Source: a virus
IMG/VR virus record: IMGVR_UViG_3300033553_000338
Location: 32,001-96,000 of that record
Length of the DNA stretch: 64,000 nt
Direction: 5' to 3' (one strand)
Shown: piece by piece, positions 34,646 to 50,492 of the stretch
Layout of the letters: the number at the start of each line of letters is the position of its first letter
How positions within the stretch are numbered: position 1 is the stretch's first letter
The notes under the pieces: generated by a model
What the model was told of the DNA's origin: nothing
What the model saw: the letters and a program-made list of their open reading frames with translations, nothing else
The model's database searches: none
Program-made: the position numbers and the translations under genes

Positions 34646-34667
34646 AGTTTTTAATGATTAAGGTCTA

Positions 34668-36974
34668 TTATACGATGTCTTTCCGAACCAATCGTTGCTG
34701 AGCATTGTCTGACATATACATCTGCTTCTCCTCAAGGTCAAGTGACCGGTCTTTTAGTTCCAGGACCCGGTCATTGTAATCTGTACGGCTGTCAAGATCC
34801 TTCTCTTTCAGCTCCAGATCTTTTTGATGTTTTTCTTTCTGTAACTGAAGCTCGGCCTGTTTAATATCAGACTGTACCTTATTCAAGCGTTCAATTTCTT
34901 TCTTGGCTTTCTCCACAACTTTGGTAAGCTCCTCCATCTCTTTATTCTTTTCTTCCAGAGCCTTGGAAAGATCACCATGTTTTTCTGCAATCTCAGCAGC
35001 GTATTCGATGATTTCGGAAGGATTGTCCATCATGACAATTCTCAGTCCGACCTCAACCGGCACAGCCCCTGTATTCATCGCAGCAGATACAATAGCCTTG
35101 GCCTCTTCCAACTTCGCTTTCTCAGCAGATGAATTGACCACCTTGATGCGGTAATTGGTGAAGCTAAAATATTTTGGAATGATGGAAAAGATAACTTTAC
35201 CCTCATTATATGTTCCTCTGTAATTATCATCCAGCGTAGTTTTCGACAAATTGATAAGATCTGTCAGCAAGTACTTCATCAGAACGTCATGTTCGTCATA
35301 CAAGTGCTTCAACACCAGTGATGAGTTGTTCATCCCTACCCTAACATTTGATACGGCTTCTCTTTGTTGGATCTCCCCGATCATTGCCGGGGTTACACCG
35401 GTGACCTTGGTGGCTTCCCCATCCAGATCCAGGATAGTTTGGTTGATCGCACTCAGCGACTCCCCGTTCACGGTCATATCAAAAGTACCATGAGTAGCCC
35501 CACTAACCGCAGCAGATCCTTCCTGGGTTGTATCCACCAAGTTTAGCCCGTTCTTGAGCATCTTGGAAGCTTTCAAAGCCCGTTCCATCTCGTTAACTCC
35601 ATAGAATTCCGGAATAGCAGAGTACTCTAGGGTCAGCCCACGGACACCGCTGTTAGCCAGCAGGTTGTCACGGTGAAAAACCATGATGTCATGTGTATCC
35701 TGGATATCCTTGCACTTCCAAAGGATGCTGTAGGTGCTGCCCCCACGATCTGAATGACGAACTCCGTTGAATGACAGGTAAACTTTATCAGGATCGGTAT
35801 CATGACGAACAGCGTCCTCAACAAGTCCCATGTCCAGGTAGATGCTGTCATCAACCCTGACGGACCGGAACAGGTGTTCCTTGATACGGGTTTTCCGGAT
35901 CTTCTCCGGGCCAACCACTACCCTACCCTCGCGGACATCATTTGGATCAATTTCGTATTCCGACAATCCGATCCATTCCGTCTCATAGACTTTGATCACT
36001 TCGGAATCATCACCAATCCCGTAGCGGTCCGGAGATGACTTTGCTAATTCAACATCCCGTTCCCCTTGCTGGTTGTATTCAGCTACAGTCATGTTGCTGG
36101 CCCAGGTCTCAGAAAACTTAACGGTACTGCACTGCATCAGCTCCTCACGCTCCTCATCTCCCATGAGATGTCCGTATTTCTGAAGAATGTCCCGTCTGCT
36201 CATGTAGCGGATGTAAACAAACTCCATCGCCTCGTTCATCATCATCTGATCCCTGCGCTTGGTGTAGTAAGCATTTTCCGGGATAAGAGCTTCCGGTTTT
36301 GGTTTCCTTCCTTTCTCAGTAGAGTACACGCGGTAAACCGCTTCCCCTACCACAGTCAGATCCATAAACAGGAGTGAACGAAGCATTGCCAAGTTAGCTA
36401 CCGGGCAATCGCGGTAATCCTCAATCAGGTTCACGGCACTCTCAAGGAACTTGTTACGCCATTTCCTGTTGGTTTCCGTCTTGGCCTGTTCGATTAAACG
36501 ATCAATAGCGGTAGGCTCCTCCCCCTCTTTCTTGGGTTTGACAGACTTTCCAAGACCTGCGTACAGGCTTGAAAGCAATTCAACAGATTGTTCCTGCTCC
36601 GCTAAGAACAGGGATTTATTGTCGGTTACTGTAACTTTGTAATCAAACTCGGTGGCTGACAAAAGGCCTACAAGCACATCAATCCGGTTACGAATAAGTG
36701 GAGTAAACTTGATTGCAGACGGTGACCCTACCCCGTAGTTATCTTCGAGGTATGCGAATTCCTTTTTATCGCGCAAACCGCTATAAAAATCCCGTTGTTT
36801 GAACATCAACTTTCTCCGTCTGGAGTTCTCGTCAACATTCCGATTGATCACCGCATCGGTCATCATCATCAGATAATCAAGGCTATCCCTTTTTTCTTCC
36901 AGGGACAGATTGAATTCATCAAATGCATCCCCTGGTTCGCCCAGGGAATCATTTCCTACGTCTTTGAAAGCCAT
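34668..36974 (-). CDS. portal protein (crAss-like)
   Basis: 768 aa; FTPLIRNRIDVLVG, KDIQDTHDI, TGVTPAMIGEIQQREAVSNV motifs and C-terminal coiled coil. Confidence 0.85.
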   Translation of the reverse strand: MAFKDVGNDSLGEPGDAFDEFNLSLEEKRDSLDYLMMMTDAVINRNVDENSRRRKLMFKQRDFYSGLRDKKEFAYLEDNYGVGSPSAIKFTPLIRNRIDVLVGLLSATEFDYKVTVTDNKSLFLAEQEQSVELLSSLYAGLGKSVKPKKEGEEPTAIDRLIEQAKTETNRKWRNKFLESAVNLIEDYRDCPVANLAMLRSLLFMDLTVVGEAVYRVYSTEKGRKPKPEALIPENAYYTKRRDQMMMNEAMEFVYIRYMSRRDILQKYGHLMGDEEREELMQCSTVKFSETWASNMTVAEYNQQGERDVELAKSSPDRYGIGDDSEVIKVYETEWIGLSEYEIDPNDVREGRVVVGPEKIRKTRIKEHLFRSVRVDDSIYLDMGLVEDAVRHDTDPDKVYLSFNGVRHSDRGGSTYSILWKCKDIQDTHDIMVFHRDNLLANSGVRGLTLEYSAIPEFYGVNEMERALKASKMLKNGLNLVDTTQEGSAAVSGATHGTFDMTVNGESLSAINQTILDLDGEATKVTGVTPAMIGEIQQREAVSNVRVGMNNSSLVLKHLYDEHDVLMKYLLTDLINLSKTTLDDNYRGTYNEGKVIFSIIPKYFSFTNYRIKVVNSSAEKAKLEEAKAIVSAAMNTGAVPVEVGLRIVMMDNPSEIIEYAAEIAEKHGDLSKALEEKNKEMEELTKVVEKAKKEIERLNKVQSDIKQAELQLQKEKHQKDLELKEKDLDSRTDYNDRVLELKDRSLDLEEKQMYMSDNAQQRLVRKDIV

Positions 36975-37054
36975 ACTATTTCACGTTTACTATAAGATAC
37001 GAAAAAAATGGAACAGATACTAGCCCCCGAGCTTCGATGAGCTTGTTACTTTAT

Positions 37055-37240
37055 AACAAACTTTTAATGTCAGAAACATTGTAAGTTTCTTTTAAGATTT
37101 CAAACTTTAAAAGTTTCTTTCAATGTAAGTTTCTTTTGTTGTTGCTTTGTAACAAACTTTGCAAGTTTCTTTTATTGTAACAAATATTGTAACAAACTTC
37201 AAAAGTTTCTTTTATTGTTGCTTTATTTGAAAGTTTCTTT
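37055..37240. repeat. iteron array, putative centromere (parS-like)
   Basis: Six AAGTTTCTTT copies (37083, 37111, 37127, 37163, 37203, 37231) and AACAAA(C/T) copies (37055, 37151, 37179, 37191) directly upstream of parA. Confidence 0.7.
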
Positions 37241-37249
37241 TAATATTTC

Positions 37250-37280
37250 TTGCTTTTTTGAAATGCCTCACCTAGATTTG
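37250..37280 (+). promoter_or_regulatory. Bacteroidota housekeeping-type promoter for parA
   Basis: TTG (37250) - 20 nt - TAGATTTG (37273-37280) matches the -33/-7 TAnnTTTG consensus. Confidence 0.55.
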
Positions 37281-37305
37281 CCTTATCTATCAATTTATCT
37301 ATCAC

Positions 37306-38088
37306 ATGAGAACACTAATTTTCAGCAACAACAAAGGGGGAGTGAGGAAAACTACCCTTGCTTACCACTCTGCCAGAGTATTGTCAGATAGGGGATTTAA
37401 GGTGCTTGGAATTGATTTAGATGAGCAATCCCAGTTTGTAGACCCTTTTGACATTTCCCCGGAGGATCGGGTTACCTTAAAGGATGTAATTGTTCGTCAA
37501 AAGCCCTTAGAGAAATGCCTTACACAGATTAATGAAAACCTATACATGCTCTACTCTAATACGGATATAGGGGAGATAGATGGGTACCTGCACTCCATTA
37601 ATTTCAATTTTCAGAATGTTATTTACAAGCAGTTAGAGGATCTGATCAAGTTATTTGACTTCGTTATCATCGACATGCCCCCAGGAACTACCAAACGATC
37701 TGCCTGTGGGTACGCATTCCCGGATGGCGAAATTATAACTCCTGTATCCACTGAGATTAATAATATCAAATCCCTAAAGCTTCTGATAGATAATGTTGAA
37801 TTTGCTAAGGAAGTGTTTAACCCAAGTCTGGCTATACGTAAAGTCATAATGAACCACACTGGCCCTGCGTTGAGCAAGGACGGGCAGATGGTTATTAAGT
37901 TTGTCAAAGATAAGTTTGATGGGCTTATATGCCCTGTGTGGTTCCGTCATTCTACTGACTATGCAGGATCCGCTGCCCGGGGAAAAACAATTAAGGAGCA
38001 CCTCACAGATGAAAAGAAAATGAATACAAAGGGTGGTGAACTTATTGAGGAATTAGATGCTATTGTAGATTTTATAATTACCAAGTGA
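37306..38088 (+). CDS. parA: ParA/Soj-family Walker ATPase (no N-terminal HTH, type Ib)
   Basis: NNKGGVRKTT deviant Walker A, IDLDEQ, FDFVIIDMPP. Confidence 0.9.
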   Translation: MRTLIFSNNKGGVRKTTLAYHSARVLSDRGFKVLGIDLDEQSQFVDPFDISPEDRVTLKDVIVRQKPLEKCLTQINENLYMLYSNTDIGEIDGYLHSINFNFQNVIYKQLEDLIKLFDFVIIDMPPGTTKRSACGYAFPDGEIITPVSTEINNIKSLKLLIDNVEFAKEVFNPSLAIRKVIMNHTGPALSKDGQMVIKFVKDKFDGLICPVWFRHSTDYAGSAARGKTIKEHLTDEKKMNTKGGELIEELDAIVDFIITK

Positions 38089-38387
38089 TGACTGAAAATA
38101 AAAAAGACAACGATTCGTTCGAAGACAGGATTTCAAGAAGTGTAAGCAAAGGAGCTATGTCATCAATCCTCAAATCAGAAGAGGGTAGGGGAGAGATGCC
38201 TGAAACACTTCCAAAAATTGATACCTCTAAACTAAAAAAGCCCACGAACTACCGTAGGCCTGTTTCTATTCGCGCAGATATTGTGGGATTCTATGAGAAC
38301 TATGCCACCAAGAGAGGGTTCAAGTTTACAACCTTGATCAACCTCATCCTGGAGGAGTACATGAAAGAGCTGTCCGGCAAAAAATAA
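38085..38387 (+). CDS. small ParA partner, putative ribbon-helix-helix centromere-binding protein
   Basis: Overlaps parA stop; disordered-looking N-terminus plus RPVSIRADIVGFYENYATKRGFKFTTLINLILEEYM RHH-like C-terminus. Confidence 0.7.
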   Translation: MMTENKKDNDSFEDRISRSVSKGAMSSILKSEEGRGEMPETLPKIDTSKLKKPTNYRRPVSIRADIVGFYENYATKRGFKFTTLINLILEEYMKELSGKK

Positions 38388-38395
38388 CCGGACAA
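38371..38395. terminator. hairpin between convergent genes
   Basis: TGTCCGG...CCGGACA. Confidence 0.45.
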
Positions 38396-38399
38396 CCTT

Positions 38400-38561
38400 C
38401 TATTCAAACAGGTCTTCCAAGTCGTTTTCTGAAATCTCTTCCGGGGTTATCCCGAGGGATTTCAGCTCTTCAACTTTCTTGTCAATCTGGGTTTCCAGAT
38501 AATCCCTCTCCAGGCAATCCTGGACAAGGTGACTAATTAGCTTCGTTCGTTGCTGGCTCAT
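38400..38561 (-). CDS. small hypothetical protein
   Basis: Probable start MSQQRTK at 38561, overlapping the end of the GroES-like gene. Confidence 0.5.
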   Translation of the reverse strand: MSQQRTKLISHLVQDCLERDYLETQIDKKVEELKSLGITPEEISENDLEDLFE

Positions 38562-39192
38562 TATCAACAATCTTTGCAAGCAACTCATCCACCTGGACCA
38601 TCCGGTAGGTTTCGTCTCCAATCAGTATCTCCGAACCGATGTAAGAATCAAAACGAATCTTGTCACCGGGAACAACCCAATCAACATTTTTGGCCACAGA
38701 AATTACCACACCACCAAGGGTAGGGGCTTCAAACTTAATGTTGTCCTCCATTCCCACGTTGGTAATTACCTCACTGTCTTCCATATCCAGCTCTTCCACC
38801 TTGGTGCTTGTGATACGTACCAATGCCCGGCCTTCACCTGGCACAATTGTTTTTTCGTTGAATACTTTTGTCTTCGAGCTCATTAGCAACATACTTTCAT
38901 GAATCATTTTAATGTACCCTTTCTCGTGTGTAGGGATACCAAAACCGGATAATTGGAACACAATTGCATAGCCACTATCCGGGGTAATGTCCATACATTC
39001 TTTTGATTTCTCAAGGACCTCAACTATATACAGCTTATCCTCTTTGAACCTTACCTGGTGTCCAAAGTCATCGCTTCCTTCGGCCAGTAAAATCCCATCT
39101 TCAGTCTTCTGGCTATCTTCGCGGATAACCATCGTCTTTACATTCTTGTTAAGCGGCCTGATGGAATCACGCCTCTCATTAGTATCAATCAT
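38533..39192 (-). CDS. tandem two-domain GroES (Cpn10/Cpn20-like) co-chaperonin
   Basis: Domain 1 IRPLNKNV...KTEDGILL; domain 2 IVPGEGRALV...GVVISV...VVPGDKIRF...G.EI.IGDETYRMV..DELLAKI. Confidence 0.75.
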   Translation of the reverse strand: MIDTNERRDSIRPLNKNVKTMVIREDSQKTEDGILLAEGSDDFGHQVRFKEDKLYIVEVLEKSKECMDITPDSGYAIVFQLSGFGIPTHEKGYIKMIHESMLLMSSKTKVFNEKTIVPGEGRALVRITSTKVEELDMEDSEVITNVGMEDNIKFEAPTLGGVVISVAKNVDWVVPGDKIRFDSYIGSEILIGDETYRMVQVDELLAKIVDNEPATNEAN

Positions 39193-39237: not shown

Positions 39238-41523
39238 TTATAAATCGAATTCAAGTAGCTTCTCTTTTTCTTCAACAACCCAATTAAAAGGTGTTTTCTC
39301 TACAGATTCCTCAAAACCCGGAGCATCCATTGGGTTAGAGTAAGAGAGGTTTAACTTCTCATGAGCGCTTCGGGCATCTTTGGACTTTTCTGTGATCACC
39401 CCAAACTCCCGATACCCTTCCTCATTGATGAAGTACCCCAGGTATTTTATCTCTTTGGACTTCCGAACTTCCTTCTGTACGTTCACATTTAATGCAGCAT
39501 CGTCCTCGTCCAGCAATTCACACATACCCATGGCCACCACCAAGTCAAATTTTCCCTTCAGCTCATAGCTGAAATTGATCAGGTTCTCGACCATCTCCAG
39601 AAAGAAAATATTCTCTCCGTAGTCGATGATGTAATCCTTGATCAGTCCGATGTAGTGCTGAATTGTTTTGACCTTGATACTGGTACCTTCAATCCGGGCC
39701 ATTTTCTTGGCTTTGGCCGGGTTCACGTTGTTGGTATTGATGGAAACTTCCTTGGCGATGTACCGGAGCATCTTTCTTCTCCGGAAATAGCTGATCACTT
39801 CCTTACGCGTTCTCTCTACGTTCAGTCGTGCATTGTAATACACCGCAAGTTTCAGTGCCCGTTCATAAGCTTCCCGTTCATCGTTGGGCCGGTCCATATA
39901 GTAGGCCACGTAAATGTTGTTGGTCTTTTCCGAAGACAGGTATTTTTTCTTGATGGCTATGGCGAATTTAGATCCTTTCTCTCCAACCAGGGAGTTTGCC
40001 ACACCATAGTCGATACCATCGACTCCACCAATGTATAAATTTGCAGGTACTTTGCCCCCAGGAGCTTTCTCAGGTTCTTCAATGATGTGGACCTTGCCAC
40101 CGGCCATCTCTTCAAACTTAACGCCTGTAATGACCCCCTTTTCGTTTTTTATCCAAAATAAATCCCCAACGCGATCTTCGGGAATTCCTTTTACGGTCCG
40201 GATATTTCGTTTGACTCCCTCCAGCTTAATCTTATCAAAGTCGTTTGTACCTGATTTGCTAAAAGCTTCGCGGGGCCAGAACGGGTATTCGGCAGCATGA
40301 TCCGTTAATCCTTTTACGTTACCAGCATCTTCCTGCTTTTTCCGTTCCCGGACTTCCTCCTCTAATACCTTGGCACAATCAACTACGCCATGCTTATCTA
40401 TGTATTTAAACGAGAACGCATAAGCTGGAAAAAAGAATCCCTGGAATTCCGGTTCCCCGGAGTCTGTGAAAGGAGAGTGGAGTCCCAGCATCCCAGCTGC
40501 CTCGGGCTGATAAAAAGCCTCCATCAAGCCGGCAAGGTTCTCACCATTACTTCCTTCGTCTCCTCCGGTGCCCCAAACGACCATTGTGCCCATTTTGATT
40601 CCACCAGTTTTAATCAACCCCCTTGCGGCAGAGATAACTTTGCCCAGTCCTTTAAAGGATCCGGCCTCTTCCAGGAACACATATCGGCAACGTGATCCCC
40701 TCAACTTGCTGGGTTTGTCGATCACTTTGGCCATGATGGTCGATAACCACCCGGATGCAGTCCCTTCCTTATCTTTGGTACCTGCAGTTTTTACCGCTGC
40801 AGTATCACTGACATGCCTCAGCTTCTTCATCCCACGCTGGGTATTGGAGTTCAGCCAGTCTAGCTGGGTACTGGCCTTATTCATTACACCATCACCTCCC
40901 AGCAGGTAACCCTCAAAGGAAGCACAGAACATGACCTTACTCCCTTTCTGTACCGTATAAGTATTTGTGGCACAGGACGCTGCATACTCAGACATACCAC
41001 ATCCACGGGGCTTAACACAAACAGCATCGTCCTCTTTATGCCAACTCCATTCCAGGTAGTGTGACCATGCGTAGTGGTATTCAATAAATTTGGGGTGTTT
41101 AATTTCCTCGGTAACAACGGAGCCTTCCTTTTCGCGGACCGGTAGGTTGTAATAGTTCAGCCAGTAGTAAAGATCCCCCGGACATCGGAACCCGTTAATT
41201 TCGTATCCTTGTGTACACCTGCGGTATTCTTCATCCCAGTAGGCTTTGTACTTTGCAGTTTTAAACGGGGCTTTTGTGTAATACTTGTTTTTTTCATGGA
41301 AGATTGCCGCAGGACGGAACCAGTTAGAATCAAATCGCTCAGTTAGCTGTTTATACTTCGAGAGTTTCCATAGATCCTTATTCATGTCCATCCAGGTGTT
41401 GATGGACCCATCCATCAAGCCTTCATCGATAGCTCTTTTATTCTTCTGAATATTTGACCGATAACTCTTGGAGTTAAACTTTTCAAGAAGTTCTAACCAT
41501 TCTGTATACGTGTACTTTTGCAT
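39238..41523 (-). CDS. terL: terminase large subunit
   Basis: KPRGCGMS Walker A, FLEEAG Walker B, VWGTGG, YIGGVDGID nuclease motif, FDLVVAMG. Confidence 0.92.
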   Translation of the reverse strand: MQKYTYTEWLELLEKFNSKSYRSNIQKNKRAIDEGLMDGSINTWMDMNKDLWKLSKYKQLTERFDSNWFRPAAIFHEKNKYYTKAPFKTAKYKAYWDEEYRRCTQGYEINGFRCPGDLYYWLNYYNLPVREKEGSVVTEEIKHPKFIEYHYAWSHYLEWSWHKEDDAVCVKPRGCGMSEYAASCATNTYTVQKGSKVMFCASFEGYLLGGDGVMNKASTQLDWLNSNTQRGMKKLRHVSDTAAVKTAGTKDKEGTASGWLSTIMAKVIDKPSKLRGSRCRYVFLEEAGSFKGLGKVISAARGLIKTGGIKMGTMVVWGTGGDEGSNGENLAGLMEAFYQPEAAGMLGLHSPFTDSGEPEFQGFFFPAYAFSFKYIDKHGVVDCAKVLEEEVRERKKQEDAGNVKGLTDHAAEYPFWPREAFSKSGTNDFDKIKLEGVKRNIRTVKGIPEDRVGDLFWIKNEKGVITGVKFEEMAGGKVHIIEEPEKAPGGKVPANLYIGGVDGIDYGVANSLVGEKGSKFAIAIKKKYLSSEKTNNIYVAYYMDRPNDEREAYERALKLAVYYNARLNVERTRKEVISYFRRRKMLRYIAKEVSINTNNVNPAKAKKMARIEGTSIKVKTIQHYIGLIKDYIIDYGENIFFLEMVENLINFSYELKGKFDLVVAMGMCELLDEDDAALNVNVQKEVRKSKEIKYLGYFINEEGYREFGVITEKSKDARSAHEKLNLSYSNPMDAPGFEESVEKTPFNWVVEEKEKLLEFDL

Positions 41524-42754: not shown

Positions 42755-42839
42755 TTGATCGAATGTATCTTCCTTTCTGCAGATCTTATTCTTACTCTAA
42801 TTTAATGATTAAATTCTATTATACGAAACTTATCTGTAT

Positions 42840-46731: not shown

Positions 46732-47478
46732 CTACCAATATTTCCTTACAGTACGCTCGGATATCATTAAAAGCTCTGCAATATCACTCTTCCCCTTGTT
46801 CGGAAATTCAATCCTGGCCCTCTTGATGCGCTCGAAGTTGTTGAGCTTCGTGCCTACATACAGCCCCTTACCATGCTTGATGATTGTGTTCTTGGTCATG
46901 GTGCCAATCTCCCGGTCCAGGTACCCAATAGTGGGCAGCACATCGTAGTTGTGGATCCGGTAATCAAAGGAGCTCTCAGCAATCTCTTCCCTCTTCTCCG
47001 TAGAGTCCCTTAAACTCCTTGCCGCAGCCTTGGCCTTACTACGCTCGACTCCCACAAGACGCTCGATTTCATCGCTGTACCAAGTCTTCCTGAATTCACA
47101 GATAGGCTCGACTAAACGTTCACCTTCCTCAACCCACCAGATAGCAGTGTCCAGTAGACCGGGGTTATTGATCAGGGCACGTTGTACCAGGTTGTTACCC
47201 CTCCAGTTGATGATCCTCTGTCTGATTACCATGGACAGCATGAATGAATCCGCTTCCGGGTTGTTCAGCTTGAGGATCTTGAACTGCTCGGCTAGGTACA
47301 GGGTGATCGCTTCCTGGTTAATCTTGGACTCCCAACGCAGGTATGGGTAGTTCTCATAGTAGGGTAAGCCTCTCCCAATAATGGTGGTCACAGGTTCTGT
47401 AGGGTAGGGGCTCCGTGTTTTGAACCATACCGATTCTATAGATGTCTGAAGGTCTTTGTACTTAGCGGTTAAACTCAT
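46732..47478 (-). CDS. putative replication-initiator-like protein with C-terminal HTH
   Basis: Probable start MSLTAKY at 47478; C-terminal KSDIAELLMISERTVRKYW HTH. Confidence 0.5.
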   Translation of the reverse strand: MSLTAKYKDLQTSIESVWFKTRSPYPTEPVTTIIGRGLPYYENYPYLRWESKINQEAITLYLAEQFKILKLNNPEADSFMLSMVIRQRIINWRGNNLVQRALINNPGLLDTAIWWVEEGERLVEPICEFRKTWYSDEIERLVGVERSKAKAAARSLRDSTEKREEIAESSFDYRIHNYDVLPTIGYLDREIGTMTKNTIIKHGKGLYVGTKLNNFERIKRARIEFPNKGKSDIAELLMISERTVRKYW

Positions 47479-47922
47479 GTAGAGGGTTGTTTTAAAGTAG
47501 ATTACATGCAAATATACGAAGGAATTTCATCACTACAAAACACCTTTTGGAAAATTTGTGCAAGGTTCCCTATTAGTAATATAAATAGAGACGATTGCAC
47601 AAGTTTTCCGGAGCCTGTTTCGGAGCATCTACCACCGTCATACCTGTCCCTTGGTTAAGTCGATAGGAGGTTAGGAGTTGGTCCATTCCGAAGCCATTTT
47701 AAAAAATGTGTGTGTTACGGCTGTGAGGAGCCCATATACCTGTAAAAACTGATTTTCGAAAATGGGAAAACACCCCCCGGGGTCTTCCCAAATAATATAC
47801 GAACGTCAACGAAAAAAAAAAACAAAGAACATAAACCCTCATGACAGGCAAGATCGCTACGCTCATAAACCCAACTCACCTTCGGTAAATAAATTTATTA
47901 ATAACCTTAAAATTAGCATGTT

Positions 47923-50349: not shown

Positions 50350-50492
50350 TTTTGTATAAAACTTCTTAATCTACAACATCGATAGAGATATTTTTATATC
50401 TTCGCAACCATCAATCAAAATGGTGTGTTTTCGATGTTGTTGATTATGAAGTAATTGACGAAACACAGTTTTTACACACTAAGACGTATCGT

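Follow-up and report, generated by a model that had tools for sequence, protein, structure and literature searches.

Type Ib partition systems comprise a small Walker-type ParA that lacks a helix-turn-helix (HTH) domain, a downstream ribbon-helix-helix (RHH) centromere-binding protein with a flexible tail, and upstream repeats that double as the operator (PMC3074162). Among tailed phages, P1 and N15 are kept as low-copy plasmids through a plasmid replicon and a ParA-type partition system, without integration (PMC7969092; PMC10983915), and two RepL genes, a toxin-antitoxin pair, and its behavior in culture have prompted the proposal that the prototypic crAssphage, Carjivirus communis, which lacks an integrase, is a phage-plasmid (PMC10983915; PMC11652158). 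In that proposal, repL homology retrieved only 19 further Crassvirales, and ParA is mentioned for P1 only (PMC10983915). Here we describe a cassette at positions 37055-38387 of a 64-kb stretch (the window, bases 32,001-96,000) of IMG/VR record IMGVR_UViG_3300033553_000338, a 157,880-bp genome that is rated 100% complete and appears to belong to a distant crAss-like phage. A repeat array, a parA gene, and a small gene overlapping it lie between the portal and terminase genes, antisense to their neighbors, just where the original prediction had placed them. The cassette is also present in assemblies of two runs from the source samples, SRR13628065 and SRR13628066. Judged by its architecture, in which every feature testable in sequence agrees with the predicted type Ib layout, the cassette is very probably a type Ib-like partition system, and it would probably serve to keep the phage genome as a low-copy, actively segregated extrachromosomal plasmid.

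The 260-aa (amino acid) ParA belongs to the ParA/MinD family. Pfam AAA_31 (4.3e-25) spans residues 1-177, CbiA and MipZ also match, PHROG 164, a “ParA-like partition protein,” matches at 2.2e-30, and NCBIfam ParA_partition matches below its cutoff; the nearest solved structures are McdA, Soj, and ParA. The protein thus is the short ParA that had been claimed, and with its Walker A starting at residue 10 it has neither the N-terminal HTH of type Ia proteins nor any other extra N-terminal domain. The ATPase motifs are a deviant Walker A, KGGVRKT (residues 10-16), a Walker A′, DLD (residues 37-39), and a Walker B, IIDMPP (D123). The unusual Walker A had been read correctly, together with the thought that ParA might be catalytically dead; since the family motif is KGGXXK[S/T] and SopA of F reads KGGVYKT (PMC9178275), the arginine is no sign of a dead enzyme. 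K10, G11, G12, K15, T16, D37, D39, and D123 are invariant in four phage lineages whose ParAs are otherwise 18-37% identical. A profile search of the complete genome finds this ParA alone, and it is without close kin: there is none in IMG/VR, none above 30% identity in GenBank phages, and none reaching 31% in PLSDB plasmids, and the best match among 5.8 billion clustered proteins is 25-26% identical.

The stop codon of parA shares one base with the ATG of the small gene (TGATG), so that the two are translationally coupled. The small protein has 99 residues, or 100 if translation starts at an alternative GTG at 38085, and it stands by itself in sequence: a word-indexed search retrieved only the protein itself, an exhaustive HMMER search added a single 687-aa protein matched in four stretches and judged probably of low complexity, and Pfam, PHROGs, and NCBIfam gave no family match. 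Centromere-binding proteins of type Ib systems usually lack sequence relatives, as reported for ParB of pCXC100 (PMC3074162). Structure prediction across 38085-38387 supports the RHH-like fold proposed for this overlapping gene, dividing its product into a basic, low-confidence N-terminal half, reminiscent of the flexible tails of ParG, omega, and pCXC100 ParB, and a predicted C-terminal RHH domain at about residues 56-97.

Three lines of prediction agree on this domain and support its assignment to the RHH fold. The structure neighbors of residues 51-99 in the ESM Atlas are clusters of CopG, RHH_1, RHH_5, and TraY, with a template modeling (TM) score of ~0.8 by target. AlphaFold2 (AF2) modeled the full 100-aa protein from its single sequence at a predicted local distance difference test (pLDDT) of 56 and the C-terminal domain, from a five-row alignment of the clade, at 83.5. 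All of the top 50 Protein Data Bank (PDB) matches of the latter model are RHH proteins, headed by omega of pSM19035 (1irq_A; probability 0.98, TM 0.64/0.67, root-mean-square deviation 1.2 Å) and with ParG (1p94) at rank 17; the Foldseek E-values for this 51-residue query are 0.27 or more and not significant, and a PDB profile search with the five-row C-terminal alignment gave a marginal best match to 3kk4 (E = 0.083). The third line is a predicted homodimer, which scored 0.53 against 0.00 for the best of three controls, with contact agreement of at least 95% and a partner pLDDT of at least 78 across runs. Its contacts are symmetric, strand to strand (domain residues 9-13, corresponding to residues 58-62 of the open reading frame [ORF], RPVSI) and helix to helix, as in an RHH ribbon. 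The mark that the homodimer passed was reached by 20 of 30 solved one-chain pairs and 1 of 23 solved single chains, a rough calibration since a custom alignment was used, and because RHH dimers have already been solved, the pass may speak for likeness and not for proof.

Upstream of parA, the iteron array of the original prediction proves real but not of the form implied. Six exact copies of AAGTTTCTTT (at 37083, 37111, 37127, 37163, 37203, and 37231) are interleaved with four inverted AAACTT cores (at 37058, 37102, 37154, and 37194), making 10 half-sites within 180 bp, three convergent operator-like pairs CAAACTT-N2-AAGTTTC (9 bp start to start) among them. None of 20,000 shuffles of the region gave 10 half-sites, the highest count being 4, and six of the nine exact AAGTTTCTTT copies in the 157.9-kb genome fall in the array, with just one further copy in the window. 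Because direct and inverted sites are mixed, the array is not a simple iteron run. It has a G+C content of 25% and lies within the 330-bp divergent region that separates the portal and parA starts; its last half-site is 66 bp 5′ of the parA ATG, and its overlap with the promoter is uncertain. The RHH protein would presumably bind these half-sites. Spacings between half-sites of the same orientation are all multiples of 4 bp (28, 16, 36, 40, and 28 for the forward and 44, 52, and 40 for the inverted sites), which could reflect a 4-bp binding lattice or past duplications of 12 and 40 bp; the pattern recalls the tetramer boxes of TP228 parH, by analogy only. Of the host-type promoter claimed here, what stands is the box itself, TAGATTTG, a candidate Bacteroidota-type -7 element (TAnnTTTG type) 26 nucleotides (nt) 5′ of the ATG. 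Across the window the pattern occurs 56 times where 50 are expected, which is no enrichment, so the call is a weak one, and a σ70 promoter scan gave nothing above chance.

The closest parallel is the δ/ω system of pSM19035, which likewise pairs a small Walker ParA with a small RHH dimer (predicted in our case) bearing a flexible N-terminal tail, places short sites in direct and inverted orientation upstream of the operon, and supplies the top structural match (1IRQ). The omega site is a heptad; the phage array has a 6- to 10-bp AAGTTT(CTTT) core instead. There is no detectable sequence homology to omega (28% identity over 36 aligned structural columns), and, unlike in pSM19035, the two genes adjoin each other with coupled translation and reside on a 158-kb phage. 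The order of centromere, parA, and RHH gene is that of TP228 ParF/ParG/parH and pCXC100 ParA/ParB/parS, as is the presence of some 10 degenerate repeats in a 90- to 180-bp region 5′ of parA, whereas the pCXC100 ParA is longer (317 versus 260 aa) and the repeat sequence is unrelated to those of both systems.

P1 and N15 have partition systems of type Ia, with a large HTH-containing ParA, an HTH ParB, and a centromere that is downstream or dispersed. The phage described here resembles them (ParA/ParB/parS in P1, SopAB in N15) in combining phage genes with a plasmid replicon and a ParA-type system and in offering no integration route that we could find. It differs in that its cassette is type Ib-like and set antisense within the packaging module of a crAss-like, podovirus-type genome. 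Assignment to type Ia, as in P1 ParAB and F SopAB, was rejected: ParA has 260 aa and no HTH, ParB_N (PF02195) has no match anywhere in the genome, and the repeats are upstream. A 133-aa ORF (genome 154,526-154,927) with an LLDGKHRIE (DGKHR) motif recalling ParB/sulfiredoxin-type nucleases was likewise dismissed as a ParA partner, as PF02195 does not match it and it lies away from parA. With C. communis the phage shares its crAss-type kinship, the lack of an integrase, and a plasmid-type replication initiator gene. In contrast to the RepL of that phage, the initiator is a Rep_3 protein with classical 21-bp iterons, accompanied by a complete ParA/RHH/array cassette, and the large terminase subunit (TerL) is only ~30% identical to those of gut crAss-like phages. 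The literature searched yielded no crAss-like phage with a reported partition system or Rep_3/iteron replicon.

The cassette is retained by relatives. Portal and TerL profile searches recovered three further lineages only, all known as fragments: L002 (IMG/VR 3300035698_028364), L003 (3300035034_002662), and L007 (Ga0306906_1000183); no longer contigs were found for the L003 and L007 lineages. Two other metagenomes supply near-identical versions of L003, named L006 and L008, and L003 and L008 differ by 0-4 positions per gene in a selection analysis. The portals are 36-41% identical to that of the window and to one another, except for L003 and L007 (71%). In all three, the survey of relatives foreseen in the original prediction turned up an antisense ParA-family gene at the equivalent site, with the GroES-like/TerL genes on one side and the portal gene on the other; after it, overlapping or abutting its end, comes a small gene whose product shows the same C-terminal strand-helix-helix pattern. 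ParA diverges faster than the virion genes, being 37% identical in a pair whose TerLs are 84% identical; the relatives' ParAs are 28-33% identical to that of the window over about half their length, and the L002 protein matches little beyond the P-loop. Short lineage-specific motifs, AAAGTTAT, AATTTGTA, and TGTTAACA, are concentrated 5′ of parA in three to four copies each, and L003 and L007 carry an extra Cro/CI-type HTH gene upstream in the island. In L002, the island continues through two small RHH-pattern genes and about seven 21-bp iterons (core ATACAATNCGTGAGT) into a Rep_3 initiator (Rep3_C, 1.2e-08; Rep3_N, 3.4e-04, slightly under the cutoff). The two consecutive small genes (L002:5738-6392, minus strand), which encode proteins of 126 and 94 aa, both RHH-like at the C terminus, occupy the interval from parA to the iterons, perhaps with one acting in partition and the other in replication or copy control.

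Beyond this clade the island was not met. The nearest outgroup, MT835470.1 (TerL 34% and portal 26% identical), is collinear in TerL, a 103-aa gene, and portal and has neither the island nor a Rep3_N match. At 78 other crAss-like loci, no gene up to 9 kb from TerL matched a ParA profile, and in five complete crAss-like genomes (94-155 kb) neither AAA_31 nor, above the cutoff, Rep3_C was matched. Bacterial genome assemblies yielded no relative with the portal profile and, with the TerL profile, a single match, a crAss-like contig of 26% identity in a Sphingobacterium metagenome-assembled genome.

The complete genome, outside the window, encodes a plasmid-type Rep_3 initiator with both winged-helix (WH) domains, directly downstream of an iteron array (Table 1); an A-rich GAAATAAAG tract lies beside these iterons, also upstream of the gene. 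Its nearest proteins are plasmid RepM/Rep_3 initiators, and the best-covering match comes from a plasmid of Runella (Bacteroidota). This Runella-like Rep and the Bacteroidota-type promoter box are the only hints as to the host. Divergent across the iterons is a 192-aa gene (genome 153,094-153,672; L009:2583-3161) that matches WH2 (Rep3_C) only (7.1e-05) and may encode a truncated second initiator or a copy-number regulator. On its other side, Rep_3 adjoins two tandem Tad2-like (Thoeris anti-defense 2) genes (genome 150,902-151,228 and 151,239-151,451; L009:391-717 and 728-940; PF11195, 5.8e-21 and 6.8e-10). A 259-aa ORF in the window (46732-47511, minus strand) considered as a second Rep found no support in Pfam or PHROGs. 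The absence of an integrase, noted at first for the window, extends to the whole genome, where neither the tyrosine (PF00589) nor the serine (PF00239) recombinase family matched at E ≤ 1; control searches matched in 14/14 and 13/14 genomes, and unusual recombinases could still be present.

Table 1. Features of the partition cassette, its neighbors, and the Rep_3 replicon (window coordinates unless marked as genome)
Feature	Position	Strand	Basis or remark
Portal protein gene, left neighbor of cassette	34668..36974	-	PHROG 6547, 4e-38
Two adjacent hairpins between portal start codon and array; probable insulator/terminator at left cassette edge	37010..37045	.	Terminator-like sites on both strands; putative function
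Centromere/operator-like array, six forward AAGTTT(CTTT) and four inverted (C)AAACTT half-sites	37058..37240	.	Counts, shuffles
TAGATTTG box, candidate Bacteroidota-type -7 promoter element	37273..37280	+	Distance to parA ATG
parA, ParA/MinD-family ATPase	37306..38088	+	Pfam and PHROG profiles
Small RHH-like partner gene (from ATG)	38088..38387	+	ORF overlapping parA stop
G+C-rich hairpin at 3′ end of small gene, between convergent genes; probable terminator at right cassette edge	38368..38397	.	Terminator scan; putative function
GroES-like (Cpn10) gene, right neighbor of cassette	38533..39192	-	Cpn10, 2e-05
TerL gene	39238..41523	-	PHROG 6681, 4.3e-63; tblastn
Rep_3 initiator gene	genome 151,463-152,464	-	Rep3_N 5.8e-12, Rep3_C 1.1e-16, both above cutoffs (WH1+WH2)
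About eight 21-bp iterons, core TGTCGTAG	genome 152,568-152,798		Directly upstream of Rep_3

Plasmid-type maintenance is the best explanation of the cassette because it co-occurs with a Rep_3/iteron replicon, to which it is joined in L002, because integrases are lacking, and because the cassette is retained at one site in the clade and absent from other crAss-like phages. Virion and packaging genes (portal, TerL, and major head protein) thus share one replicon with a plasmid initiator and origin. The suggestion that the phage persists as an episome is strengthened by the initiator and its iterons, by the whole-genome lack of recombinases, and by the recurrence of the island in all three other lineages, once with Rep_3. 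The premise from which the original prediction set out, that crAss-like phages are generally virulent, fares less well, as this view is no longer uniform now that RepL genes have led to a phage-plasmid proposal for the prototypic crAssphage (PMC10983915). We posit that dimers of the 99-aa protein would insert paired β-strands into the major groove at AAGTTT/AAACTT sites and coat the ~180-bp array cooperatively, forming a partition complex that would simultaneously repress the adjacent par promoter. ParA-ATP dimers would bind the host nucleoid nonspecifically, and the flexible basic N-terminal tail of the RHH protein would trigger ATP hydrolysis, so that sister copies separate on a ParA gradient by a diffusion-ratchet mechanism. 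What is said here of DNA binding, of stimulation of the ATPase, of autoregulation, and of a plasmid state is read from sequence and should be taken as putative.

A ParA with an RHH adaptor might instead arrange replicating or packaging-ready genomes on the nucleoid in the course of productive infection. Cargo of many kinds is positioned by ATPases of the ParA family (PMC9178275), many phages not documented as plasmids, large Bacillus phages for example, have ParA-like genes, and the cassette occupies the center of the packaging module, with portal on one side and TerL on the other. Its placement on the strand opposite the late genes and the hairpins that bracket it, however, make it look separately regulated and not part of the late operon, and its pairing with a Rep_3/iteron replicon, fused in L002, is the normal rep-par backbone of low-copy plasmids; we therefore regard lytic-cycle positioning as unlikely. 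We are slightly more skeptical that the locus is mainly regulatory, with an omega-like or Arc/Mnt-like RHH repressor acting at the array on the divergent portal/late promoter and its own operon and with ParA an accessory or co-repressor that segregates nothing. The location of the array between the portal and parA starts and its three palindromic pairs would suit such a role, and omega, as the title of the 1irq entry states, is also a global transcriptional repressor. Yet the full set of ATPase motifs has survived extreme divergence in four lineages, which argues that ATP turnover is selected, and type Ib systems use one set of sites both for autoregulation and as centromere (PMC3074162), so that operator activity is compatible with partition.

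The two remaining explanations strike us as highly improbable. The cassette could be a plasmid-derived passenger, captured by recombination and now neutral or decaying, as the want of a close ParA homolog and a G+C content of 40.9%, slightly below the 45.8-46.6% of its neighbors, might suggest. Both ORFs, however, are undamaged, their translation is coupled, no catalytic residue has been lost, and occupancy of the same site in four lineages with such divergent portals implies long retention. Least credible of all is that the phage ParA mimics or poisons host ParA, MinD, or Soj and so arrests chromosome segregation or division during takeover: beyond a general likeness to Soj and MinD nothing direct speaks for it, and interference of this kind needs no dedicated DNA-binding partner or cis repeat array, yet both are present in a conserved layout.

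Several observations weigh against plasmid-type maintenance and the cassette model on which it builds. The plasmid state is deduced from genes, and the phage encodes lytic-type machinery of its own, which, given the ParA-like genes of phages not known as plasmids, makes a lytic role possible. The RHH assignment comes from predictions whose structure-search and profile E-values were given above, the promoter call at TAGATTTG is weak, and the arrays of the relatives, three to four copies of lineage-specific 8-mers, are much weaker and suggestive only. The genome has no CI/S24-type repressor (S24 peptidase family), and the cassette lacks the flanking Cro/CI-type HTH gene of L003 and L007, so that no latency switch is identified. 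Finally, 141 bp are identical at the two genome ends (1-141 and 157,740-157,880). Either a genuine terminal repeat or overlapping ends left by the assembler on a circular or permuted genome could account for them; 141 bp is a common maximum assembler k-mer length, and the end repeat may mark a circular assembly.

Kinship to Crassvirales in the broad sense is distant and is indicated by three virion and packaging genes: the portal and TerL, each matched by its PHROG (Table 1), and a major head protein matched by PHROG 11589. Nearly all tblastn matches of TerL are to crAss-like phages, at 27-34% identity. The 1.35-kb plus-strand par unit is set within this packaging module, antisense to the portal, GroES-like, and TerL genes. 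The GroES/Cpn10-like protein, of 200-219 aa and 26-56% identity, directly follows TerL in all four lineages (in the relatives at L002:2732-3373, L003:2058-2660, and L007:6272-6874), and its L007 version contains two Cpn10 stretches in one chain according to Pfam. In two other crAss-like contigs, the TerL match (33-34% identity) spans ~3.05 kb (L017:624-3699 and L018:5943-8979) versus the usual ~2.2 kb, which suggests an insertion, be it an intron, intein, or homing element, in the terminase gene. The motif GTATAA-N6-TTAAT, found 10 times in the window at no more than one mismatch (1.8 expected) and nowhere in the par cassette, is probably a phage-specific promoter element; examples lie at 34657-34673 and 42808-42824 on the minus strand and at 50354, 51171, 60330, and 61350 on the plus strand. 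Membership in a defense system was discarded, as the PADLOC matches were to the P-loop only.

A broader proposition, which we put forward tentatively and with somewhat less than even confidence, is that a whole undescribed clade of large-genome crAss-like phages are true phage-plasmids, equipped with Rep_3/iteron replicons and a fast-diverging type Ib-like module antisense in the late packaging operon, with this placement acting as a switch and the divergence arising from escape from incompatibility. If so, late read-through would silence par during the lytic cycle, and the RHH protein, bound at the array beside the portal start, would help to quiet the late genes in the plasmid state; this mutual exclusion of par expression and late transcription is speculation drawn from the antisense site. 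The divergence of ParA, RHH protein, and repeats would then reflect selection to escape plasmid incompatibility among co-infecting relatives.

It is a long-standing question by what means crAss-like phages, which lack integrases, stay highly abundant for years. For the prototypic crAssphage, the phage-plasmid proposal drew on culture dynamics and RepL genes, and no partition system was part of it. The lineage described here carries what looks like a full low-copy plasmid backbone, comprising initiator, iterons, ParA, RHH adaptor, and centromere-like array, which is conserved across its clade and absent from the other crAss-like genomes examined. Mechanistically, this is a familiar type of system; what is new, as far as the literature searched goes, is to meet it conserved in a clade of crAss-like phages. 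A 1.35-kb par cassette and a 1.3-kb rep/ori fragment offer a compact, testable handle on this backbone. Screens based on repL alone would miss such phages, and the present case suggests that plasmid-type persistence arose more than once in crAss-like phages, via different plasmid modules.

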